DNA of 64,000 bases from Oscillospiraceae bacterium (GTDB lineage Bacteria; Bacillota; Clostridia; Oscillospirales; CAG-272), in assembly GCA_015064255.1 (NCBI GenBank), contig SVSP01000002.1:127462-191461 (forward strand). The letters run 5' to 3'. Below, piece by piece: positions 4,764 through 51,730 of this stretch. Positions within the stretch are counted from its first letter, which is position 1. Every line of letters starts with the position of its first letter. Both the position numbers and the translations under genes were made by a program. A model generated the notes under the pieces. That model was not told the DNA's origin. It worked only from the letters and a program-made list of their open reading frames with translations, and did not search any database.

Positions 4764-7544
4764 TTACAGAATACTGAACGAAAACTCCTTTTCTCCGCCG
4801 TAAATACCTGCTTTTCCCGCATTTGCGCGGATAATAATAGTGATTTCAAAGCTGTCATCGCCGCAGGTGTCGAAATATATCTTTCGTCTTGTCGGCCAAG
4901 GATTCTGACTTCCCGTGTAATCTGACAGGTCGCTGTCAACAAGCCTTCCGTTTATCCAGACCTCATATTCGAGATAAACGATATGTCCGATACTGAGAAG
5001 TGCCTTTTTGTTTTCGCCCCTGATGGTCGGAATTTTCACCGTGTGACGGTAGAATTTCCAACCCTTGTCGAAATCCTGGAAGCTTCGAACCTCCATCTTC
5101 CACGAAACGAAGTTGTTCATATCGGTATCGGAAAGAACCATATTCGGGTCGGGCTTCTCGGGGAAGGTTACGTTTGAAACGGTTATCTCGTCTATCTTTC
5201 TTCCGTAGCTTTCGGGAAGATAAATATCCTGCTTCGCGTTTACAATGTCGAAGGTTATCGTTTCATCGGCGCATCCTTCACAGGAGATTACAACCGAAGC
5301 TTTCTCGGCACGGTCTTTTACCTGCATTATAGCCTGACATCTTCCTGCAAAAAGGTATCTTTCGCTTGCTTTTTCGGCTTCGTGGCTGTTTGGATTGCCG
5401 TTTCCGACGCCGATTATCTCACAGTCCCCTATAGCCTTGAATTTTATAAGATTGTCTGCATTGTGAACTACGCTTCCTGATGCATCGGTGAGGTAAACGT
5501 CTATGGCAGAAGCGTCCTTTCCGCTGTTGTCAAGCACTGCTTTGTGAGCCGTTGCAATAATTCTTGAGGGTGCGGACGGTGTTCTGAGTGTGTCCTCGCA
5601 GACTATTTCTCCGTCCTTGTATCCGATAGCGTTAAGTACGCCCGGAACAAATTCGATCTCCCAGTAGCACTGCGATGAGAGCTTGGACTCGCGTCTTCCG
5701 AGCGACTCCCCGTTGAGATAAAGCTCTACCTCGTCTGCGTTTGTTACGGTCATTATCTTGACCTTTTCGCCCTCTTTGTGATTCCAGTGGTGGAGTATTT
5801 TCATCATAGGCTCGTCTGTGAAGCAAGCGCGCATTACGTGTGCAGATGCTTTAGGGTATCCGCAGAGATCGAAAACTCCGAAAAGGGAAACAACCGTCGG
5901 GTACTTGAAGGGAGTGGGCTCTCCGCGGTAGTCAAATCCGGTCCAGATGAAGAGTCCTGCGATCCACTCACGCTCGGAAAGTACCTTCCACGCATCCTGC
6001 ATAGTGCAGCCCCACGGCACCGTATAGCTGTCAAAATCTTCGATGAGATTGTTGTCGAGATCTCTTGTCTGCTGTCCGCGGATCGCAAGTGCCGAAAGAT
6101 TTTCGCTTCCCGTTGTGGGTATGTTCGGATATTCGGCGCGGATCTTATCTACCGAAGCGTGGTTGTAATTTACGCCGAAAACGTCCATTTCGTATATTGC
6201 GCCCGTGCCTGTGTAGAAATTCGTGTTTTGCGCGGCAGTTGTCGGACGCGTAGGATCGAGCTTTTTTATCGCACTCTTGAGTCGTGCGTAAAGAGTACTC
6301 GATTCCTCGCTGCCCTGTATTGCCTCTTCGTTGAATATCGACCACATAATAACGCTCGGATGGTTGCGGTCGCGCTTTACCATAGTGCGGATGTTGAGAA
6401 GAGTATCGTCGTTTGCTTCAAATCGGCGGTTTTCGTCCATAACGAGTATTCCGTATTTGTCGCACGCGTCTAAAATTTCGCGCGCGGGAATATTGTGAGC
6501 ACATCTGTAGGCATTTACTCCCCACTCCTTGAGGATCTGTATTCTCATATCCTGAATGGAATCGGGGACGGCTACGCCGACACCCGCGTGGTCCTGATGA
6601 CAGCAAACGCCCTTGAGAAGAATATGTCTGCCGTTTAAGAAAAATCCCTTTTCGTTGTCAAAATAGAACGTTCTGAAGCCGAAATTCGTACTGTCCTCGT
6701 CAAGAAGCTCGTTTTCGCGGTAGATGCGGGCAAATGCCTTGTAGAGATTCGGCTCGTTAATATCCCAAATATCGGGGTCTTCGACGGTCATTTCAAGCTT
6801 TACAGTCTTTGTTTCGTCGAAATCCATAGAGTTGTTCTTTTTCGCTACGGCAACGCTTTCACCGTATCTGTCGAAAAGCTCTACCTCGACAGTAAACTCT
6901 CCGCTTGGCGTGTATGCGCTGTTTTCGACCTCAATTTCGGCAAATACACTCCATTTGTTGCCGTCGCCCTTGACAGGATTTATCCACAATCCGTTGTGCG
7001 CGATGTGGAGAAGCTCTTTCGCGTAGAGCTTTACGTGTCTGTAAATTCCCGTGCCTTCGTACCACCATCCTTCACAGCTTTTGCCGTCTACCTCTACAGA
7101 GATCAGGTTCGCGCTTTTGCCGAATTTGACACGGGGTGTGATGTCAAGAACGGTTTCGCTGTACGCGCTCGTAGAGCGTCCCGCGAGCGAACCGTTGAAA
7201 TATATATTGGAAAAAACCGAAATTCCTTCAAAAACGAGGGTAAAATGCTTGTTTATGTATTCAGTAGGCATTTCAAAGCTTTTTCTGTACCATACGTTTT
7301 CTCTTATCTTCGAGCCGTGAGAGGGCGGTGTGCTGTCATCGAATCCGACCTCGACTCTTCGGTCGTGAGGAAGATCAACTATGCGCCAATCGTCGTCGTT
7401 GTATTTGAAGCCCGCTTCGCCGTGTGCTGCACCCGTCTTAACGCTTGAATATATTTCGGCGTGGCTGTTCGCACCGTTTTCGATGTTGGTATCGTCCACA
7501 GCCTTGAATTTCCAGTTTTTATCTGCGTTAAATAAAGTTCTCAT
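4764..7544 (-). CDS. Glycoside hydrolase family 2 (beta-galactosidase/beta-glucuronidase-like)
   Basis: ORF 4764..7676; start set at the ATG at 7544 (MRTLFNADKNWKF) with GGAG upstream. Shows a GH2 sugar-binding/TIM-barrel pattern (NAYRCAHN, HPSVIMWSIFNE). Confidence 0.8.
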   Translation of the reverse strand: MRTLFNADKNWKFKAVDDTNIENGANSHAEIYSSVKTGAAHGEAGFKYNDDDWRIVDLPHDRRVEVGFDDSTPPSHGSKIRENVWYRKSFEMPTEYINKHFTLVFEGISVFSNIYFNGSLAGRSTSAYSETVLDITPRVKFGKSANLISVEVDGKSCEGWWYEGTGIYRHVKLYAKELLHIAHNGLWINPVKGDGNKWSVFAEIEVENSAYTPSGEFTVEVELFDRYGESVAVAKKNNSMDFDETKTVKLEMTVEDPDIWDINEPNLYKAFARIYRENELLDEDSTNFGFRTFYFDNEKGFFLNGRHILLKGVCCHQDHAGVGVAVPDSIQDMRIQILKEWGVNAYRCAHNIPAREILDACDKYGILVMDENRRFEANDDTLLNIRTMVKRDRNHPSVIMWSIFNEEAIQGSEESSTLYARLKSAIKKLDPTRPTTAAQNTNFYTGTGAIYEMDVFGVNYNHASVDKIRAEYPNIPTTGSENLSALAIRGQQTRDLDNNLIEDFDSYTVPWGCTMQDAWKVLSEREWIAGLFIWTGFDYRGEPTPFKYPTVVSLFGVFDLCGYPKASAHVMRACFTDEPMMKILHHWNHKEGEKVKIMTVTNADEVELYLNGESLGRRESKLSSQCYWEIEFVPGVLNAIGYKDGEIVCEDTLRTPSAPSRIIATAHKAVLDNSGKDASAIDVYLTDASGSVVHNADNLIKFKAIGDCEIIGVGNGNPNSHEAEKASERYLFAGRCQAIMQVKDRAEKASVVISCEGCADETITFDIVNAKQDIYLPESYGRKIDEITVSNVTFPEKPDPNMVLSDTDMNNFVSWKMEVRSFQDFDKGWKFYRHTVKIPTIRGENKKALLSIGHIVYLEYEVWINGRLVDSDLSDYTGSQNPWPTRRKIYFDTCGDDSFEITIIIRANAGKAGIYGGEKEFSFSIL

Positions 7545-7676
7545 AGTGTGAAAAATCTCCTTTACTTTATCGTTCCATCGATTGTAGCATATTTTGGGGG
7601 CTTTGTCAACAAGAAAGCAAGTGAAGGTATTAATTGATAAAAATGACAAAAATTCAAATAAATTTTCAAATCCCAC

Positions 7677-7704
7677 TTGTATTTTTTTGAAATTGTGGTA
7701 TAAT
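7677..7704 (+). promoter_or_regulatory. Extended -10 promoter for the decarboxylase cluster
   Basis: TTGTAT at 7677-7682, 16-nt spacer, TGgTATAAT ending at 7704. Followed by a leader of about 200 nt before the ATG at 7909. Confidence 0.5.
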
Positions 7705-7908
7705 CAATTTTAGAATGGGGTAGGATGTTGGTTTTGTGTAAAATATACCCGAGCAGAGCATCCGAAGTCTGTTCTGTGTGTATGAGAATTTCGGTAAAAA
7801 GATATTCTTATATACAAAAAAGTACTTATCAGCCTCGGGCTGAAACAATAAAAAGTGAGAAAGGGTTTTGTTCACTGAAAAAAGTGGACAGCAAGGTAAG
7901 TTGGTTCT

Positions 7909-9273
7909 ATGAGCAACACAAACAAAAGCATATCCCTGCTCTTCGACGAAGGTACGTTTGTTGAAACCGGAGCCTATATCACAGTAGGAAATGACGACTC
8001 CAAGAAGTCGGGCGCTACTTGTGGCTACGGTGCTATAAACGGTGCTCTGGTCTTTGCGTTTGCACAGGACTTTTCTGTCGAAAAGGGCGCGCTCGGAAGA
8101 GCACAGGCTGAAAAAATTTGCGCACTTTACGATATGGCACTTAAAAACGGAGCTCCCGTTATAGGAGTATTCAGCAGTGCCGGCGTAAGAGTTAAGGAAG
8201 GAAGCGCAGTTCTCGGAGCATACGGTAAGCTTCTCGCAAAGATAAACGCGGCTTCCGGAGTTATTCCGCAGATCGCAGTTGTTGATGAAGTTTGTTCCGG
8301 TCTTTCGGCAACAGCGGCATCTATGTTCGATATCGTTATAGCGGACAGCGCATCTAAATTCTACATTACACCTCCCGGTGTTGCAAAGGTAAACGGTGTT
8401 TCCGAAGCGGGAAGCGCGGCATATGCCTTTGAAAACGGAAATATTGATATAGTTTGCGAAGGTAAGGAAGATTCTCTCGCAAAGGCACGCGATATCGTAT
8501 CCGTGCTTCCTCAGAATTCTGCTCAGGGCTATGCGTATGCGGAAGCAGATGACGACGCTTGCAGAGTAACTGCAGAGCTTGAAAACGCAAAGGACGTACG
8601 CGAAGCGGCAGCAATTATTGCAGATAACGGTCATTATACCGAGCTTAAGGCTGATTTTGCACCGAACGCTCTTACGGCTATCGCATCTCTCGGTCAGATC
8701 ACAGTAGGTATCTGCGGTCTCGGCGGAGCACTCGGCGCACCTGAAGCGAAGAAGATCTCTTCTTTCATTTCCTTCTGCGATAACTTCTCTATGCCTGTAA
8801 TTACAGTTCTCGACAGCTGCGGTGCAGATCACGAATCGGGCGATGAAATTCTCCCCGGAGAATTTGCAAAGCTTGCTTCGGCTTATGCAGGCGCAAACTG
8901 TCCTAAGATCACATATATTCTCGGTAAGGCTTACGGTGCGGCATTCACTCTCGTTGGCTCGAAGGCACTCGGCGCAGATATGGTTTACGCTGCTCCCAAG
9001 GCTGAAATCAGTGTGCTTTCTCCCGAAGCTTCGGTACAGTTTATGTTTGCAGACGAGATAAAGGCTGCTGACGACAGTGCCGCAAAGCGTGCAGAGCTTC
9101 TTAAGAAGTGGAAGAGCGAAGAAGCGCTTCCCGAAAAGGCTGCAGCAAACGGCTCTATCGATGACGTTGTTGCGTACGCAGAAACAAGAGCAAGAATTAT
9201 CTCTGCTGTTGAAATGCTCTTTGCAAAAATCTCGGGAAATCCCGCAAAGAAGCATTCAAAGCTTCCTTTCTGA
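7909..9273 (+). CDS. Acyl-CoA carboxyltransferase (12S / MmdA / PccB-like), short and divergent
   Basis: 454 aa with a two-lobed carboxyltransferase pattern (LLFDEGTFVE, GYGAINGALVFAFAQDF, NGAPVIGVFSSAGVRVKEG). An in-frame stop 12 nt upstream fixes the N-terminus. Confidence 0.7.
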   Translation: MSNTNKSISLLFDEGTFVETGAYITVGNDDSKKSGATCGYGAINGALVFAFAQDFSVEKGALGRAQAEKICALYDMALKNGAPVIGVFSSAGVRVKEGSAVLGAYGKLLAKINAASGVIPQIAVVDEVCSGLSATAASMFDIVIADSASKFYITPPGVAKVNGVSEAGSAAYAFENGNIDIVCEGKEDSLAKARDIVSVLPQNSAQGYAYAEADDDACRVTAELENAKDVREAAAIIADNGHYTELKADFAPNALTAIASLGQITVGICGLGGALGAPEAKKISSFISFCDNFSMPVITVLDSCGADHESGDEILPGEFAKLASAYAGANCPKITYILGKAYGAAFTLVGSKALGADMVYAAPKAEISVLSPEASVQFMFADEIKAADDSAAKRAELLKKWKSEEALPEKAAANGSIDDVVAYAETRARIISAVEMLFAKISGNPAKKHSKLPF

Positions 9274-9328
9274 GTTTAAAACTCGGAAACTAAAATTAAA
9301 CTAATGATGAAAGGGGAAAATTTACGAT

Positions 9329-9745
9329 ATGTATATTCCCGTACTCGTAGATCTGACATCGGCGGACGTAACAAAGCCTATTGAAAATATGGCTGACCGT
9401 CTTTCGGCAGCAGGACAGACAATCGTTCTCGGAATGCTTGCGGTATTTTCGGTTCTTGCGATACTTTGGCTCGTTCTTTCTATTATGGGTAAGTTCTTTA
9501 CAACAGAAGTTAAAGCTCCCAAGGAAGAAAAGAAAGAAGAACCTGTAGCTCCGGCAGCACCCGCAGCACCCGCAGCTCCCGTGGCACAAGCACCTGCTCC
9601 CGTTGCAAACGATGAGGAGATCGTTGCCGCTATCACCGCGGCAATCTCGCTTATGCTTGATAAGCCGCAGACAGCTTTCCGCGTAGTTTCCTTCAGACAG
9701 GCATCGCGTGAGGCTTTCCGCAGAAACAATATTAACAGAAACTAA
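9329..9745 (+). CDS. OadG/MmdD-family small membrane subunit of Na+-translocating decarboxylase
   Basis: One TM helix (IVLGMLAVFSVLAILWLVLSI), an Ala/Pro linker, and the DEEIVAAITAAI motif typical of the OadG family. The start could instead be the internal Met. Confidence 0.65.
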   Translation: MYIPVLVDLTSADVTKPIENMADRLSAAGQTIVLGMLAVFSVLAILWLVLSIMGKFFTTEVKAPKEEKKEEPVAPAAPAAPAAPVAQAPAPVANDEEIVAAITAAISLMLDKPQTAFRVVSFRQASREAFRRNNINRN

Positions 9746-9786
9746 CCTTATTAATAAATAATCCAAGAAAGAGAAGGTTTTATACA

Positions 9787-10185
9787 ATGAGAAAATTCAG
9801 CGTTACAGTAAACGGTACAGTATATGAAGTTGAAGTAGAGGAAATCGGCGCAAACGAATCTGCTCCCGTAGCAGCTCCCAAGGCAGCTCCCGCACCCGCA
9901 GCGGCTCCTAAGGCAGCTCCCGCACCTGCAGCGGCTCCTGCAGCAGCTTCCAAGGCGGCAGCTCCCACATCGGGAACACCCGTTAAGGCTCCGATGCCCG
10001 GTACGATAGTTAAGGTAAAGGTATCCGAAGGTCAGGCAGTTAAGAACGGCGACGTTGTCTGCGTTATCGAGGCTATGAAGATGGAAAGCGATATTTGCGC
10101 TCCCTGCGACGGAACGGTTGGAACTATCGTTACCAAGAGCGGCGCATCGGTCAACACAGACGATCTTCTTCTCACTATTGCTTAA
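9787..10185 (+). CDS. Biotin carboxyl carrier protein (1.3S / MmdC-like)
   Basis: 132 aa with an Ala/Pro-rich linker and the biotinyl-lysine motif VIEAMKMES. Confidence 0.85.
   Translation: MRKFSVTVNGTVYEVEVEEIGANESAPVAAPKAAPAPAAAPKAAPAPAAAPAAASKAAAPTSGTPVKAPMPGTIVKVKVSEGQAVKNGDVVCVIEAMKMESDICAPCDGTVGTIVTKSGASVNTDDLLLTIA
9880..9939 (+). repeat. In-frame 30-nt tandem duplication in the BCCP linker
   Basis: aaggcagctcccgcacc[c/t]gcagcggctcct occurs twice (KAAPAPAAAP x2) with one mismatch. Confidence 0.8.
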
Positions 10186-10227
10186 ATCAGAGCACATCCT
10201 TAAACTTAACGAAAGGACTTTGCAAAA

Positions 10228-11427
10228 ATGCTTCAAAGTATCTTAAATTTTGTGGAAACAACGGGTATTGCAAGACTTTTTGAAACCGACGGTTGGTGGA
10301 AAACGCTTGTAATGATCGGTCTTTCCTTCGTGCTCATATATTTTGCAATAGTAAAAAAATACGAGCCGCTTCTTTTGCTTCCGATAGCTATCGGAATGCT
10401 TCTTACAAATCTTCCCGGTGCGGGTCTTTTCCACCTCGAAATGTGGATAGACGAAACCGGAACAATGAAAGTTGCCGAATCTATTAAGATGGTTCTCAAC
10501 AAGGGCGGATTCCTTGACCTCTTATACATAGGAGTTAAGCTCGGAATCTATCCCTGTATAATCTTTATGGGTATCGGTGCTATGACAGACTTTGCACCCC
10601 TTATCTCGAATCCGAAGAGCCTTCTTATCGGCGCGGGCGCACAGCTCGGTGTATTTGTTGCCTTTTCGGGTGCACTTATTTCGGGTGTGTTTTCTCTCGC
10701 AGAGGCTGCTTCTATCGGTATCATAGGCGGTGCGGACGGCCCTACTGCAATTCTTGTAACAAAAACACTTGCTCCTTCGCTTCTCGGAGCAATAGCAATA
10801 GCTGCATATAGCTATATGGCGCTTATCCCGATGATACAGCCGACATTTATGAGACTCCTTACCACAAAGAAGGAGCGAATGATAAGAATGTCAACACTGC
10901 GTCAGGTATCAAAGACAGAGAAGATACTCTTCCCGATAATCGTAACAGCAGTCGTAGGACTTATCATTCCCGATGCACTTGCACTTATCGGATGTCTTAT
11001 GTTCGGTAACCTTCTTAACGTTTGCGGAGTAACAGAACGTCTTTCCAAGACGGCGCAGAACGAGCTTATGAATATCGTTACGATATTCCTCGGTATCAGC
11101 GTAGGTGCTACCGCAAGTGCGGAAAACTTCCTGCGACTCGAAACACTTCTTATAATCGGTCTTGGACTCGTGGCATTCGCTATTTCGACCTGCGGCGGAC
11201 TTATTACCGCAAAGGTTATGAACTGGATCTCGGGCGGAAAGATCAACCCCCTTATCGGTTCGGCAGGCGTTTCCGCAGTTCCTATGGCGGCACGTGTTGC
11301 TCAGCTTGAGGGACAGAAGGCAGACCCCTCTAACTTCTTACTTATGCACGCAATGGGACCTAACGTTGCCGGAGTTATCGGCTCTGCGGTCGCAGCGGGT
11401 GTATTCCTCTCTATGTTCGTTCGATAA
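10228..11427 (+). CDS. Na+-translocating decarboxylase beta subunit (OadB/MmdB/GcdB family)
   Basis: 399 aa polytopic membrane protein with motifs typical of the family (GGADGPT, IGSAGVSAVPMAARV). Confidence 0.85.
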   Translation: MLQSILNFVETTGIARLFETDGWWKTLVMIGLSFVLIYFAIVKKYEPLLLLPIAIGMLLTNLPGAGLFHLEMWIDETGTMKVAESIKMVLNKGGFLDLLYIGVKLGIYPCIIFMGIGAMTDFAPLISNPKSLLIGAGAQLGVFVAFSGALISGVFSLAEAASIGIIGGADGPTAILVTKTLAPSLLGAIAIAAYSYMALIPMIQPTFMRLLTTKKERMIRMSTLRQVSKTEKILFPIIVTAVVGLIIPDALALIGCLMFGNLLNVCGVTERLSKTAQNELMNIVTIFLGISVGATASAENFLRLETLLIIGLGLVAFAISTCGGLITAKVMNWISGGKINPLIGSAGVSAVPMAARVAQLEGQKADPSNFLLMHAMGPNVAGVIGSAVAAGVFLSMFVR

Positions 11428-11467
11428 TTAGTCAGATTCAAATAAGAATCGGAAAGTGAGATAAAAA

Positions 11468-12865
11468 ATGGCAAAAGTAAAAATTTGTGAAACAGTTCTC
11501 CGTGACTCACACCAGTCCCTTGTTGCGACTCGTATGACCACAGAAGAAATGCTCCCTATACTCAAAGCGCTTGATGAAGTTGGATATCACTCTCTCGAAG
11601 CTTGGGGCGGCGCGACATTCGACTCCTGTCTCCGCTTCCTCAACGAAGACCCTTGGCAGCGCCTGCGAGTTATCCGCGATAACGTAAAGAATACAAAGCT
11701 TCAGATGCTTTTCAGAGGTCAGAATATCCTCGGATACCGCCACTACGCTGACGACGTTGTTGAATACTTCGTACAGAAGTCGATAGCAAACGGTATCGAT
11801 ATCATCCGTATTTTCGACGCTCTTAACGACGAAAGAAACCTTCGCACAGCTATAAACGCTACAAAGAAGGAAAAGGGACACGTTCAGGTTGCATTCTCCT
11901 ACACAACAGGTCCTTGCTACACAACAGAGTATTTCGTAGATTATACCAAGCGTCTTGTTGAAATGGGCGTTGACTCTATCTGTATCAAGGATATGGCAGG
12001 TCTTCTTAAGCCTTATGCGGCAGAAGAGCTCGTTAAGGCTCTCAAGACAGAGATCCCCAATCTCCCCGTAGAGCTTCACACACACTACACAGCAGGTCTT
12101 GCATCTATGACAGCTCTCAAGGCTATCGAAGCAGGATGCGACATCATCGACACGGCAATTTCTCCTCTCGCACTCGGAACCTCCCAGCCGCCTACAGAGC
12201 CTATCGTAGCGGCACTTCAGGGAACACCTTACGATACAGGTCTTGATCTTGAAAAGCTTAACGTAGTAGGAAAGCACTTCGAAACTCTCCGTGAAAAGTA
12301 TCTCGAAAACGGTCTTCTTAACCCGAAGGTACTCAAGGTTGACGTTAACGCGCTTCTTTACCAGGTTCCCGGCGGAATGCTCTCCAACCTTATTTCTCAG
12401 CTCAAGAACCTCGGCAAGAGCGATAAGCTCACAGAAGTTCTCGAGGAAGTACCGAGAGTTCGTGCAGATGCAGGATATCCTCCGCTCGTAACACCCTCTT
12501 CTCAGATCGTTGGTACACAGGCTGTGTTTAACGTAATCAACGGACGTTACAAGACTGTAACCAAGGAATTCAAGGGACTTATCAAGGGTGAATACGGTCA
12601 GGCTCCGATGGAGATCGATCCCGAATTCAGAAAGCAGATCATCGGAAACGAAGAGCCCATTACCTGCCGTCCCGCAGATAATATCGCTCCCGAGCTTGAA
12701 ACACTCAAGAAGAAGGCTGCTGATTACATTCAGCAGGAAGAAGACGTTCTTTCTTATGCACTCTTCGAACAGGTTGCAGAAAAGTTCTTCGAAAAGCGCC
12801 GCGAAACACAGCTCGCTCTCGACTCCGAGAATGCTGATCCCGACGCAAAGATTCACAGCGTATAA
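11468..12865 (+). CDS. Oxaloacetate decarboxylase alpha / transcarboxylase 5S-like carboxyltransferase (no biotinyl domain)
   Basis: 465 aa with the pattern TVLRDSHQSL...EAWGGATFD...KDMAGLL...HTHYTAGL, typical of OadA/PycB/5S. It ends before any AMKM biotin domain. Confidence 0.85.
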   Translation: MAKVKICETVLRDSHQSLVATRMTTEEMLPILKALDEVGYHSLEAWGGATFDSCLRFLNEDPWQRLRVIRDNVKNTKLQMLFRGQNILGYRHYADDVVEYFVQKSIANGIDIIRIFDALNDERNLRTAINATKKEKGHVQVAFSYTTGPCYTTEYFVDYTKRLVEMGVDSICIKDMAGLLKPYAAEELVKALKTEIPNLPVELHTHYTAGLASMTALKAIEAGCDIIDTAISPLALGTSQPPTEPIVAALQGTPYDTGLDLEKLNVVGKHFETLREKYLENGLLNPKVLKVDVNALLYQVPGGMLSNLISQLKNLGKSDKLTEVLEEVPRVRADAGYPPLVTPSSQIVGTQAVFNVINGRYKTVTKEFKGLIKGEYGQAPMEIDPEFRKQIIGNEEPITCRPADNIAPELETLKKKAADYIQQEEDVLSYALFEQVAEKFFEKRRETQLALDSENADPDAKIHSV

Positions 12866-12879
12866 CTTATAAAATAAAA

Positions 12880-12916
12880 ATACCAACGGATTTTTATAGT
12901 CCGTTGGTATTTTTTG
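12880..12916 (+). terminator. Intrinsic terminator after the decarboxylase cluster
   Basis: ataccaacgga-tttttatag-tccgttggtat followed by tttttt. Confidence 0.8.
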
Positions 12917-13005: not shown

Positions 13006-13284
13006 AAATTGTTATTTTGGGTGCTGTGAGCAAAGGAAAGTAAGTTCCTAATGTATAAAAAAGGTTTTGTGCTGTGCGAACACATCTAAAACGCGATTGA
13101 GTGTCTTTTCGTTCATTTCTGTGTCGACAGAAACGAACCAAAGAACGATATAAGGAAGGGAGGAATCCCTTCCTTATAAATCCAACCCTCTTTTACCGCC
13201 GCGGGGAAACGCGGCGGCAGTATAGTTTACTTTGTACGGAATTTTCGAAGATGTGATAATACATAGAAAAATGTTTTTTATTTT

Positions 13285-13313: not shown

Positions 13314-14141
13314 TTATAAAGCGATAACCTTGCAAGCTCTCTCGTAAGCGAGAGCGAGGAAAGCCTCGTGATCGAGTCCGTTGTAGATGTCGTGCGTAGT
13401 TTTGTTGGGCTTGTTGTGACGAGTAAGCTCAAAGGTGATTATTCCGTTGTAATTTTCACGCTCGATACGGCGCATAATACCTGCCCAATCGGCAATTCCG
13501 TCGAAAGGAAGAAGATGCGCATCGTCGTGCCAAGTTACGTTTTCGGGATCGGTGATACCGAGATTGTCATTGAAATGTGTGCAAATAAGCTTGCCGTGGA
13601 AGCGTCCGGGGATGTCCTTGTGGAAGTTGTAGCACATTTCGTGACCGGTATCCCAGCAAAGACCAACAGACGAAGAATTTCCGAGACCTTCAAAAATTTT
13701 GTCAAGATATTCGAGATTTTCTACGTTTTCGAAAGCGAGCTTGACGTCCGTTTTTTCGGCGGCTTCAACAAGGCGGGCAAAACGCTTGATTCCGAGATCG
13801 TTCGGAGTGTGCCTGTCCATTCCGATGATCGGATGCACTATCATGATCGGAACGCCTGCGCTCTGACAAGCGTTTACACAGCTTATGAGAAGGTCGGTCT
13901 GATGCTCGCCTTCGTCGCCTTCCTCCCAAATATGATGAACCTTTCCGAACGGAGAGTGGACGGACTGATAAATAAGACCGTTTTTGGCGATGATCTCTGC
14001 TTTTTCGAGAATATCGGAGCCGTTTTCGGTGCATCCGGTAAAGCAGCCGTCAAATCCGACCGATTTTGTGAGTTTCACGGTATCTTCAAAAGAATCCTGA
14101 TATCCGAGACCGATGTTGATTGCAAGCTTGCGACTGTTCAT
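13314..14141 (-). CDS. Sugar phosphate isomerase/epimerase (xylose-isomerase-like TIM barrel)
   Basis: 275 aa with an AP_endonuc_2/TIM-barrel-like pattern (VHSPF, IMIVHP, LAFEN, CWDTGHE). Confidence 0.65.
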   Translation of the reverse strand: MNSRKLAINIGLGYQDSFEDTVKLTKSVGFDGCFTGCTENGSDILEKAEIIAKNGLIYQSVHSPFGKVHHIWEEGDEGEHQTDLLISCVNACQSAGVPIMIVHPIIGMDRHTPNDLGIKRFARLVEAAEKTDVKLAFENVENLEYLDKIFEGLGNSSSVGLCWDTGHEMCYNFHKDIPGRFHGKLICTHFNDNLGITDPENVTWHDDAHLLPFDGIADWAGIMRRIERENYNGIITFELTRHNKPNKTTHDIYNGLDHEAFLALAYERACKVIAL

Positions 14142-18343: not shown

Positions 18344-19189
18344 ATGAAAAAATTCGTTTTAAGTGCATTTGCAGATGAAGCAAGCGAGCTTCTTCACGAG
18401 CAGATTGACGCGATGAATGAAAACGGCGTTGAAATGCTTGAAATAAGAGGTGTAAACGGAAGAAATATCTCCGATATGACAAAGGGCGAGGTCAAAGCCG
18501 CAAAATATCTGCTCGATAAAGGCGGAATAAAGGTATGGTCGATCGGCTCTCCGATAGGAAAAGTGAAGATCACAGACGATTTCGATAAGCATTTCGATAA
18601 ATTCAAGAAAACGATGGAATATGCGGACATTCTCGAGGCAAAATCCTTCAGACTTTTCAGCTTCTTCGAGGTTGATACGGAAGAAAAGGAAAACGAAGCT
18701 ATTGAACGCCTCGGAAAATTCTGCGAATATGCAAAGGGTTCGGGCGTAGCCATCTGCCACGAAAACGAAAAGGGAATTTTCGGAGATACTGCACCGCGCT
18801 GTCTTAAGATACACAAGGCTCTTCCCGAGCTTCCCGCAATATTTGACCCCGCAAACTTCGTTCAGGTTGGTCAGGACACACTTGAAGCGTGGGAAATGCT
18901 CGGAAAATACGTTAAGTATATGCACATAAAGGACGCTCTTGAAAACGGAAGCATCGTTCCTGCAGGCAAGGGAACAGGACATATTCCCGAAATACTCGGA
19001 ATGTTTGCAAGTGAGAGCGAAACAAAGGTGCTCACACTTGAGCCTCACCTCAAGGTCTTCTCCGGTCTTGCGGGACTTGAGGGCAAGCAGGAAGGGCTTT
19101 CCGAGCATTACGAATACGGATATCCCGATAACCGTACCGCATTTTCCGCGGCTGTAAGCGCACTCAAAGACGTAATAAATAATATTTAA
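18344..19189 (+). CDS. Sugar phosphate isomerase/epimerase family TIM-barrel protein
   Basis: 281 aa with a TIM-barrel AP_endonuc_2-like pattern (CHENEKGIFG, HIKDA, LEPHL). Confidence 0.6.
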   Translation: MKKFVLSAFADEASELLHEQIDAMNENGVEMLEIRGVNGRNISDMTKGEVKAAKYLLDKGGIKVWSIGSPIGKVKITDDFDKHFDKFKKTMEYADILEAKSFRLFSFFEVDTEEKENEAIERLGKFCEYAKGSGVAICHENEKGIFGDTAPRCLKIHKALPELPAIFDPANFVQVGQDTLEAWEMLGKYVKYMHIKDALENGSIVPAGKGTGHIPEILGMFASESETKVLTLEPHLKVFSGLAGLEGKQEGLSEHYEYGYPDNRTAFSAAVSALKDVINNI

Positions 19190-50938: not shown

Positions 50939-51730
50939 ATGGACATAATTATGAGAATAGGACGAATAAATAAGTATTCGCAGGAAAATTTTGACCGTAC
51001 AAAGGAAAGCGGACTCAGCTTTATTGAGATCTGCTGCAATAATGCTGAGGAGGCAGAGCAGTTTATAAACGCTAAAGACGAGGTAAAAAAGCAGGTACTC
51101 CGTACGGGAATCGATATTTCGAGTGTTGGCAGATGGAATCACGATCTTAACGAAAACGGAAAGGTCAACGAAGAAAAAGCGGCGCAGTATTTCGCGCTTA
51201 TGGACGTAGCTGTCGAGCTTGGCGCAAAGACATTTGTCTGCGGAATCAACAGAGATAACAGCATCAGTCTGTACAGAAACTATATAAACGCAGTGGAATT
51301 CTTCGGAAAGCTTATTGAACACGCGGACGGAAGAATAAAGGTTGCCATTCAGAACTGCAACTGGAATAACTTCGTTGTATCTCCCGAAGAATGGAAGGTG
51401 GTTTTGGGTGAATTGCCCGATCTTTATATAAAGTACGATCCGTCGCACGCATATAACAGAAACGCAGACTATCTTGCAGAACTTTCGGATTGGGGCGACC
51501 GTATTGCACACTTTCACGTCAAGGGAACAACGCACGCGGGAAGCCGCGGAGTTGATGATCCGCCTGCAGGAATGGACGATATTAAGTGGGGCTCGGTATT
51601 TGCTATACTGTATGCAAGAAAATATAACGGTGACCTCAGTATAGAGCCGCATTCGGGTACTTGGCTTGGCGAACTCGGTAATTTCGGTGTTGAGTTCACA
51701 CGCGATTATATTAAAAAGTTCGTTTTTTGA
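50939..51730 (+). CDS. Sugar phosphate isomerase/epimerase family TIM-barrel protein
   Basis: 263 aa; third paralog-like TIM-barrel protein in the window (HFHVKG, SIEPH). Confidence 0.55.
   Translation: MDIIMRIGRINKYSQENFDRTKESGLSFIEICCNNAEEAEQFINAKDEVKKQVLRTGIDISSVGRWNHDLNENGKVNEEKAAQYFALMDVAVELGAKTFVCGINRDNSISLYRNYINAVEFFGKLIEHADGRIKVAIQNCNWNNFVVSPEEWKVVLGELPDLYIKYDPSHAYNRNADYLAELSDWGDRIAHFHVKGTTHAGSRGVDDPPAGMDDIKWGSVFAILYARKYNGDLSIEPHSGTWLGELGNFGVEFTRDYIKKFVF

Follow-up and report, generated by a model that had tools for sequence, protein, structure and literature searches.

We describe a five-gene operon from Oscillospiraceae bacterium (CAG-272) in which genes that probably encode a Na+-pumping oxaloacetate decarboxylase stand together with a gene for a second, remodelled carboxyltransferase (CT) of the acyl-CoA type. 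The operon lies in a stretch of 64,000 nt, here called the window (assembly GCA_015064255.1, contig SVSP01000002.1, positions 127,462-191,461). The reading that we favour, with a probability of roughly 0.45, is a split Na+-translocating oxaloacetate decarboxylase whose carboxybiotin would also be drawn off by the remodelled CT, most likely for malonyl-CoA. Each component is of a known type, and it is the combination, together with the clade to which the CT belongs, that is the new part. In the literature searched we found no paper that describes or characterises the five-gene arrangement; a preliminary description of this DNA had allowed that it might correspond to an already characterised enzyme, and no such enzyme came to light.

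In the mechanism that we propose, OadA would take CO2 from oxaloacetate, yielding pyruvate and carboxybiotin on a free-standing carrier, and the carrier would dock at the membrane via an OadG-like anchor. Carboxybiotin would then meet one of two fates. Decarboxylation by OadB, with export of Na+, would be the main and energy-conserving route, while the CT would hand the carboxyl group on to acetyl-CoA or, less probably, another acyl-CoA, so that malonyl-CoA for lipids would be made without ATP. The five proteins would form one membrane complex around a single biotin carrier. We infer the single five-protein complex, catalysis by the CT, the identity of the CT substrate and the direction of flux alike.

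Results

Layout of the operon

The five open reading frames (ORFs) lie where the preliminary description had placed them and encode the component types that it had named, as confirmed by their coordinates and domain matches. They are listed here with the signals that flank them.

7677-7716, + strand: promoter region, with a TTG -35 element at 7677-7679, an extended -10 element TGgTATAAT at 7696-7704 and a second element TAGAAT at 7711-7716
7909-9273, + strand: remodelled acyl-CoA-type CT (12S/PccB/MmdA fold), 454 aa, PF01039 Carboxyl_trans, E = 1e-75
9329-9745, + strand: OadG/MmdD-type membrane anchor, 138 aa, PF04277 OAD_gamma, 64 bits
9787-10185, + strand: free-standing biotin carboxyl carrier, 132 aa, PF00364 Biotin_lipoyl, EAMKM motif
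10228-11427, + strand: OadB/MmdB-type carboxybiotin decarboxylase and Na+ pump subunit, 399 aa, PF03977 OAD_beta, E = 3.5e-154, 513 bits
11468-12865, + strand: OadA/5S-type oxaloacetate-pyruvate carboxyltransferase, 465 aa, HMGL-like and PYC_OADA domains, without a biotin domain
12876-12914, + strand: intrinsic terminator closing the operon, a hairpin (stem of 17 pairs) and a T run immediately behind the last stop codon

All genes are co-directional, and the spacers, previously given as 40-55 nt, measure 55, 41, 42 and 40 nt; a purine-rich ribosome-binding stretch is present in each of the four. The cluster is bounded by a single promoter region at its 5' end and a single strong terminator at its 3' end, and internal promoter-like or terminator-like sites are no more frequent in the cluster than expected from shuffled sequence. 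A split of the operon by internal signals was considered and rejected, only weak promoter-like sites (9 of 12 positions) and short stem-loops being found. Promoter region, terminator and short spacers with ribosome-binding sites thus look like the signals of one operon, which bears out the earlier claim. Two large minus-strand ORFs (7666-9255 and 11507-12886) overlap the well-supported CT and OadA genes and are taken as spurious. The same gene set was also found on a 187,849-bp JGI metagenome contig.

The oxaloacetate decarboxylase and Na+ pump half

OadA scores above the cutoff of NF008985, the NCBI equivalog model for the 465-aa OadA that lacks a biotin domain (758.5 bits; cutoff 718). Over its catalytic domain it aligns to V. 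cholerae OadA (2nx9) with E = 6e-151 and 506 bits, and by this alignment it keeps the metal-site Asp (D13), the (carbamylated) Lys of the IKDMAG motif and the HxH motif (LHTH). Its match to Propionibacterium 5S has E = 8e-140. OadB likewise exceeds the cutoff of its model TIGR01109 (481 bits; cutoff 190.6), and in the alignment to Salmonella OadB (6iva; 382 bits) six of six residues, D203, Y229, N373, G377, S382 and R389, are identical. We take these to be the functionally important positions defined by mutagenesis in the Dimroth laboratory.

The anchor passes the general gamma-subunit model TIGR01195 (45.4 bits; cutoff 36.05), nearly tied with its 45 bits against the MmdD model, for which the cutoff is 150. 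It reads as a single transmembrane helix, after which come a linker rich in Ala and Pro and a C-terminal tail. The best NCBIfam match of the carrier is the MmdC model (132 bits; cutoff 200), and the protein aligns to residues 481-595 of a fused OadA (PRK14040). Its N-terminal segment is joined by an Ala/Pro linker to a biotinyl domain that carries EAMKM. The N-terminal segment, which aligns just upstream of the OadA biotin domain, is probably an association domain. Judged by this alignment, the carrier is the C-terminal part of a fused OadA in the form of a separate protein, so that the system would represent the split and not the classical fused form.

Every sequence feature looked for in a Na+-translocating oxaloacetate decarboxylase (EC 7.2.4.2) was found: OadA, the OadB residues, a gamma anchor and an MKM-type carrier. 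We consider it probable, and much more secure than the reading with a CT branch, that the part formed by OadA, carrier, OadB and OadG is a split decarboxylase of the Enterococcus type. The OadA/OadB/OadD/OadH enzyme of Enterococcus faecalis is a characterised four-subunit split enzyme, with an OadA that lacks a biotin domain and a separate carrier (PMC6193673); in itself, this pairing is therefore no novelty.

Some OadB proteins of related loci (L012, L015, L019, L021, L022, L026, L052, L057 and L060) carry an insertion of ~50-100 residues after residue ~75-100 in window numbering, as inferred from split tblastn matches. The 471-aa OadB of L084 (12202-13617) is of similar kind; the insertion is reminiscent of the extended N-terminal part of proteobacterial OadB (433 aa).

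A remodelled carboxyltransferase

The CT had been described as MmdA/12S-like, which is too simple. An AlphaFold2 (AF2) model predicts the two-domain fold with confidence (pLDDT 84, pTM 0.85), with a drop in the 91-100 loop, and its best Foldseek match is 12S (TM 0.89, identity 34%). The best sequence matches in the PDB are 1vrg and 1on3, T. maritima PCC-beta at 257 bits and 12S at 244 bits. A glutaconyl-CoA (GcdA) type was rejected, since GcdA in the PDB reached just 34-41 bits as against 244-257 for the 12S/PccB types. The MmdA assignment does not stand: against TIGR01117 the CT obtains 309.7 bits where the cutoff is 998.8. It reaches the cutoff of no NCBIfam model, and in the sources it is named only 'carboxyl transferase domain-containing protein' or 'hypothetical'. 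A truncated pseudogene was also considered and rejected, given a maximal ORF, a Pfam match covering 12-492 of 493 and the confident AF2 model. Among orthologues, lengths of 449-465 aa recur, and predictions within the clade reach ~540 aa, some of them through an over-extended start assignment.

The CTs of 80 species-level genomes were compared. All CTs adjacent to OadA carry remodelled motifs, whereas those in loci of the mmdADCB type or the Pcc type stay canonical. The canonical GPCAGGAVYSPAL(T/M)D has become G-x-C-(A/G/S)-G-(S/A/L/M/T)-x-A-x-x-A-x-M-F-D in OadA-linked CTs, and RKAYGGAY has become G-K-A-Y-G-(A/S/T)-x-(F/Y). The window CT itself reads EVCSGLSATAAS and GKAYGAAF where canonical proteins have GPCAGGAVYSPA and RKAYGGAY, a pair of motifs found intact in all mmdADCB-type CTs that we examined. 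DSGGARIQE and GIIRHGAK have been remodelled as well. Of the columns that are invariant among 12 canonical CTs from fetched loci (184 in all), 68 are still kept at >=80% in the 67-member OadA-linked clade. New conserved residues have appeared at other positions (V57R, G59K, S61A, N88F, P137A, G319L, R339G, G344A, F380W and Y401W), and some formerly invariant positions, such as the former Gly132, have turned variable.

The phylogenetic placement proposed in the preliminary description was run for the CT and set it in a separate, OadA-linked clade apart from canonical CTs (100/100 neighbour-joining bootstrap). The CT is also the fastest-evolving large subunit of the operon. Mean pairwise identities at five-gene loci are 50% for the CT, 65% for the carrier, 74% for OadB and 79% for OadA, compared with 72.5%, 63% and 68% for CT, carrier and OadB at loci of the mmdADCB type. 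This pattern of divergence fits a change of function under new constraints. Because the remodelled clade is seen only beside OadA genes and its members evolve much faster than OadA and OadB, oxaloacetate would be the main substrate and the CT an accessory branch. That the CT is functional is argued by the new conservation of replaced positions, the confidently predicted fold and the bootstrap of the clade.

One five-gene locus, L061, encodes a CT (6896-8410) with intermediate motifs, GQCAGGAAFLPAMAD with the GG kept and GKAIGSAY. In the tree it is basal within the OadA-linked clade, perhaps as a transitional form.

Conservation and relatives without a pump

How widely the layout is conserved, a question raised in the preliminary description, was addressed by a census of 80 loci, the best at species level; the layout recurs in many uncultured Clostridia of the gut. 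At 55 loci the five genes are complete and in the same order, and a further 11 are cut by a contig end; the remainder are of the mmdADCB type (6), Pcc-like (5) or without OadB (3; L067 from Bittarella, L069 and L074). At 16 loci tblastn had missed the anchor, and a small transmembrane ORF is present in the same gap at all 16. Canonical loci of CT, anchor, carrier and OadB in the data set include L063, L070, L072, L073 and L082. The closest genome is an uncultured Clostridia metagenome-assembled genome from sheep rectum (CT identity 93%).

The loci without OadB bear on the role of the CT. A profile search with pump-less CTs added [Clostridium] methylpentosum DSM 5476, Soleaferrea and Ligaoa; the CTs of C. 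thermocellum and C. bescii were absent from its results. Two further inspected loci, P0156 of the [C.] methylpentosum type and P0235, contain CT, carrier and OadA only and have the same remodelled CT motifs, which were confirmed also in Bittarella, L069 and L074. The pump-less CTs form a monophyletic group (100/100 bootstrap), the layout having been verified at L067, L074, P0156 and P0235 and being assumed for the five remaining ones. L069 stands apart from this group, within the five-gene clade, and represents a separate loss of OadB. In the clusters of CT, carrier and OadA, where OadB is missing, nothing but the CT could supply the second half-reaction, and turnover of biotin requires it to be catalytic. 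The same remodelled motifs are found in these pump-less CTs, so the remodelling would be compatible with catalysis. As for history, an operon of the mmdADCB type would have gained an OadA gene, after which the CT would have diverged; the pump would then have been lost at least twice, leaving soluble CT-carrier-OadA transcarboxylases.

At L069 a 98-aa ORF with a transmembrane helix (8371-8686) lies between CT and carrier and resembles a relic anchor, which suggests that OadB was lost secondarily. A comparable gamma-like gene, Clo1313_1525, has been reported in the C. thermocellum cluster, which also has an OadA-like gene (PMC5887222). In the genomes of the [C.] methylpentosum type, the pump-less cluster lies a few kb downstream of gpsA (L122, 538-2994; L123, 716-1726), and in L122 also of plsY, in conserved synteny. 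This link to phospholipid-synthesis genes may merely reflect the common der-plsY-gpsA housekeeping block.

Partner substrate of the CT branch

By analogy, the evidence points to acetyl-CoA and malonyl-CoA as the partner pair of the CT, rather than methylmalonyl-CoA, because for C. thermocellum and Caldicellulosiruptor the pump-less version of the cluster has been put forward as a putative transcarboxylase that forms malonyl-CoA (PMC5414155, PMC7071700). In a metabolic model of C. thermocellum, a cluster of the same gene order minus OadB is the source of malonyl-CoA (PMC5414155), and oxaloacetate decarboxylase activity was not detected in this species (PMC8303734). The corresponding unit of C. 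bescii, encoding CT, a hypothetical protein, biotin carboxyl carrier protein (BCCP) plus oxaloacetate decarboxylase (OAD), has a site for the malonyl-CoA sensor FapR and escapes repression when fapR is deleted (PMC7071700). In strain BL-4 there is a CT/carrier/OAD cluster, its CT sharing 33% identity with 12S, but methylmalonyl-CoA mutase is absent (PMC7764203). Transcarboxylation between acetyl-CoA and oxaloacetate is experimentally established in Entamoeba (PMC8136499). No gene for a methylmalonyl-CoA mutase or epimerase turned up in the 64-kb window, nor in the 7-10 kb around those related loci that we inspected.

Several points weigh against a malonyl-CoA branch added to the oxaloacetate decarboxylase. 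The canonical oxyanion-hole motifs GG/YSP and RKAYGG are gone from the CT, and the residue in place of the second Gly varies (S/A/L/M/T), which might reflect lost catalysis in the pump-containing forms. Membership of C. thermocellum and C. bescii in the CT clade is putative, judged by gene order and annotation. No fab or acc genes were found near the operon, in the 64-kb window or in the inspected neighbourhoods of related loci. Finally, a FapR operator upstream counts among the marks of the pump-less cluster in C. bescii and C. saccharolyticus, but none of 81 upstream regions has a Bacillus-type FapR box at <=3 mismatches, a consensus from which clostridial sites may differ; another element is conserved there.

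Alternative readings

The preliminary description had suggested either a membrane-tethered transcarboxylase or a Na+ pump with two substrates, and both stay conceivable. In the two-substrate pump, OadA (with oxaloacetate) and the CT (with malonyl-CoA or methylmalonyl-CoA) would load the shared carrier and OadB would decarboxylate all carboxybiotin, so that two different decarboxylations would drive Na+ export. The first four genes stand in the mmdADCB order, canonical loci of this kind occur in the same data set, and the carrier is closest to MmdC and the anchor nearly so to MmdD, both below cutoff. We nevertheless regard a dual-substrate pump as unlikely. At 310 bits the CT stays below the MmdA cutoff of 999, motifs that never vary among genuine mmdADCB CTs are missing from it, and it has diverged by ~24 identity points more than OadB, the opposite of the trend at mmdADCB loci. 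Moreover, no mutase or epimerase gene is near any inspected locus, BL-4 lacks the mutase (PMC7764203), and the mechanism would be impossible for the pump-less sister clusters.

The CT could instead be a pseudo-enzyme: in a split oxaloacetate decarboxylase pump, a non-catalytic CT hexamer would hold OadA and carrier on the OadB/OadG core, as 12S does in transcarboxylase. Remodelling of both oxyanion-hole motifs, of DSGGARIQE and of GIIRHGAK would be expected of such a scaffold, as would the variable former Gly132, the fast evolution of the CT relative to the other large subunits and the lower AF2 confidence in the 91-100 loop. Many of the replaced positions are newly conserved, however, and not free, and in the CT-carrier-OadA clusters without OadB a dead CT would leave a biotin cycle without a second half-reaction. 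The E. faecalis enzyme, too, needs no scaffold (PMC6193673). We consider a purely structural CT quite improbable.

It is very unlikely, in our view, that the operon encodes two enzymes, a soluble CT-carrier-OadA transcarboxylase and an OadA-carrier-OadB-OadG decarboxylase, that assemble independently. Pump-less clusters of the transcarboxylase type do exist as a sister lineage, and association of the alpha subunit with the beta3-gamma3 core has been described as dynamic (PMC8100219). With one carrier gene and one OadA gene, the two activities would therefore compete for the same carboxybiotin pool, and such an arrangement would be functionally equal to the decarboxylase with a CT branch that we favour.

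Operation in reverse, with a Na+ gradient driving OadB backwards so that carboxybiotin yields oxaloacetate through OadA (anaplerosis) and malonyl-CoA through the CT without ATP, appears the least credible: the gene set would suffice, the gut is rich in CO2, and Dimroth and Hilpert (1984) reportedly reversed oxaloacetate and methylmalonyl-CoA decarboxylases in proteoliposomes, carboxylating pyruvate and acetyl-CoA, but the sequence is silent on direction. Decarboxylation of oxaloacetate is strongly exergonic (~-34 kJ/mol; PMC8085960, PMC8100219), and net reversal would therefore need a very large Na+ gradient.

Promoter and leader

A promoter scan upstream of the CT gene matched TTGAAA-18-TAGAAT at 10 of 12 positions. 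The transcript would begin at or near a conserved element.

7716-7727, + strand: conserved leader start TGGGGTAGGATG, at or next to the transcription start, forming the 5' side of a hairpin predicted at the 5' terminus

An exact match to this element occurs only once in the window. Upstream of related CT genes, a trio of elements recurs with fixed spacing: the -35 element, TGnTATAAT and, 8-10 nt further on, TGGGGTAG(G/A)ATGG. It was found in the window and at 28 fetched loci, or, with two off-register matches removed, in the window and at 26 loci from different species (L003, L005, L006, L010, L011, L013, L014, L016-L018, L020, L025-L027, L029, L031, L043-L045, L048, L051, L053, L055, L056, L062 and L066). 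Of 60 upstream regions, 21 contain the 8-mer TGGGGTAG, where chance would give 0.1. A 5'-terminal hairpin that starts from it is predicted in most species, with a distal part that differs between them. The leader is ~190 nt long in the window and in the close relative L003, and 60-100 nt in most other species. The element could act as the operator of a repressor, or it could stabilise or regulate the mRNA from the 5' end. A riboswitch in the 190-nt leader was rejected, as no Rfam match was obtained at E <= 1. A 79-aa ORF at 7725-7964 overlaps the leader (7727-7908) and is not conserved elsewhere.

A metagenome scan for the conserved leader motif gave 34 matches, of which five are CT operons and most others look like chance occurrences in unrelated sequence. 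Two other matches combine a -10 box with TGGGGTAG(G/A)ATGG, one (L096, 1941-1968, - strand) preceding a Na+/Pi cotransporter with PhoU domains and the other (L118, 1571-1599, - strand) a 460-aa protein without a Pfam match. They come from the same metagenome project as the CT operons. With one example each, they hint at a small regulon, too thinly to define it.

Genomic neighbourhood

The operon is flanked by glycoside hydrolases in the window and by transketolase, PfkB or housekeeping genes at other loci; with flanking genes that are not conserved, it therefore behaves as a self-contained module. The neighbourhood was uninformative about function, as genes of the fab, acc, cit or mutase kinds were not seen. 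Outside the operon the window is ordinary chromosomal DNA, with glycoside hydrolases and operons for pyrimidine and histidine biosynthesis. Three AP_endonuc_2 paralogues (xylose isomerase-like TIM barrel; 13314-14141, 18344-19189 and 50939-51730) lie near genes for glycoside hydrolases and sugar metabolism, which is ordinary for a saccharolytic gut Clostridium. An Rfam match to PhotoRC-I (13134-13174, - strand; 22 bits, gathering score 45) coincides with the terminator hairpin of the convergent downstream gene at 13149-13178 and is almost certainly due to chance.

Discussion

If the CT branch is active, two carboxyltransferases and an ion pump would share one carrier, a first among biotin enzymes, and the complex would directly couple central carbon flux (from phosphoenolpyruvate (PEP) via oxaloacetate to pyruvate) to Na+ bioenergetics and to the supply of lipid precursors. 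A bolder and rather doubtful extension is that, in a large clade of gut Clostridia, the complex is both an oxaloacetate-driven Na+ pump and the only acetyl-CoA carboxylase of the cell, independent of ATP. Soluble transcarboxylases of the C. thermocellum type would in that case be its pump-less descendants or sisters. With an active CT branch, a source of malonyl-CoA would also be at hand in many anaerobes that apparently have no biotin carboxylase, and annotations as 'oxaloacetate decarboxylase' or 'methylmalonyl-CoA decarboxylase' in gut and rumen Clostridia would have to be re-read in metabolic models. If the CT is a dead scaffold, a conserved pseudo-enzyme subunit in a bioenergetic complex would be documented.

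According to a 2020 review of the PEP-pyruvate-oxaloacetate node, Na+-pumping oxaloacetate decarboxylases are mainly proteobacterial and their role beyond fermentation of citrate and tartrate is unclear (PMC8100219). The complete operon in 55 of the 80 best species-level loci amounts to a broad clostridial reservoir of such enzymes.

Comparison with known systems

The preliminary description had compared the operon with mmdADECB of Veillonella, oadGAB of Klebsiella and the transcarboxylase of Propionibacterium, and we judge that comparison to be correct. The OadGAB enzymes of Klebsiella, Vibrio and Salmonella share with the window the key residues of OadB, the catalytic domain of OadA and an anchor of the OadG family. 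They differ in an alpha subunit with fused association and biotin domains and in the absence of a second carboxyltransferase. The E. faecalis enzyme has in common with the window an OadA that lacks the biotin domain, a separate carrier, an OadB pump and a small membrane subunit. It has no carboxyltransferase of the acyl-CoA type, however, and its small subunit is OadH where the window has an OadG/MmdD-type anchor. Moreover, oadHDB and oadA of E. faecalis sit in the citrate-lyase (cit) locus, whereas no cit genes are near the operon of the window.

Methylmalonyl-CoA decarboxylase, encoded by mmdADECB in V. parvula and mmdADCB in P. modestum, has the same order of CT, anchor, carrier and beta pump, and we take the order of the first four genes in the window to be that of mmdADCB in P. 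modestum. In both species the genes form a single operon (PMC11575231). The window differs in that its CT fails the MmdA model and lacks GPCAGGAVYSPA and RKAYGGAY, in that OadA is added and in that MmdE is missing.

The methylmalonyl-CoA:pyruvate transcarboxylase of Propionibacterium combines, like the window, a CT of the 12S fold, a CT of the 5S/OadA fold and a small carrier (1.3S). It is soluble and has neither OadB nor OadG, both of which are encoded in the operon of the window. Its 12S subunit keeps the canonical motifs, while the window CT is 34% identical to it and belongs to another clade. The window thus holds the gene set of a biotin transcarboxylase (EC 2.1.3.1 type), but not in the soluble form without a pump. 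The transcarboxylase of Entamoeba histolytica resembles the proposed CT branch in its reaction, from acetyl-CoA and oxaloacetate to malonyl-CoA and pyruvate (PMC8136499), yet it is a single eukaryotic fusion of other domain origin with no membrane pump, so that its architecture is analogous and not homologous.

A shared gene order links the window with the putative transcarboxylases of C. thermocellum (Clo1313_1523-1526) and C. bescii (B5X54_RS07175-07190), in which CT, a gamma-like gene, carrier and OadA follow one another as in the window. The CT-carrier-OadA clusters of [Clostridium] methylpentosum, Bittarella and BL-4 have a similar order, and the readable members show the same remodelled CT motifs. 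These pump-less clusters lack OadB, and several also lack the anchor, whereas in the window OadB stands between carrier and OadA.

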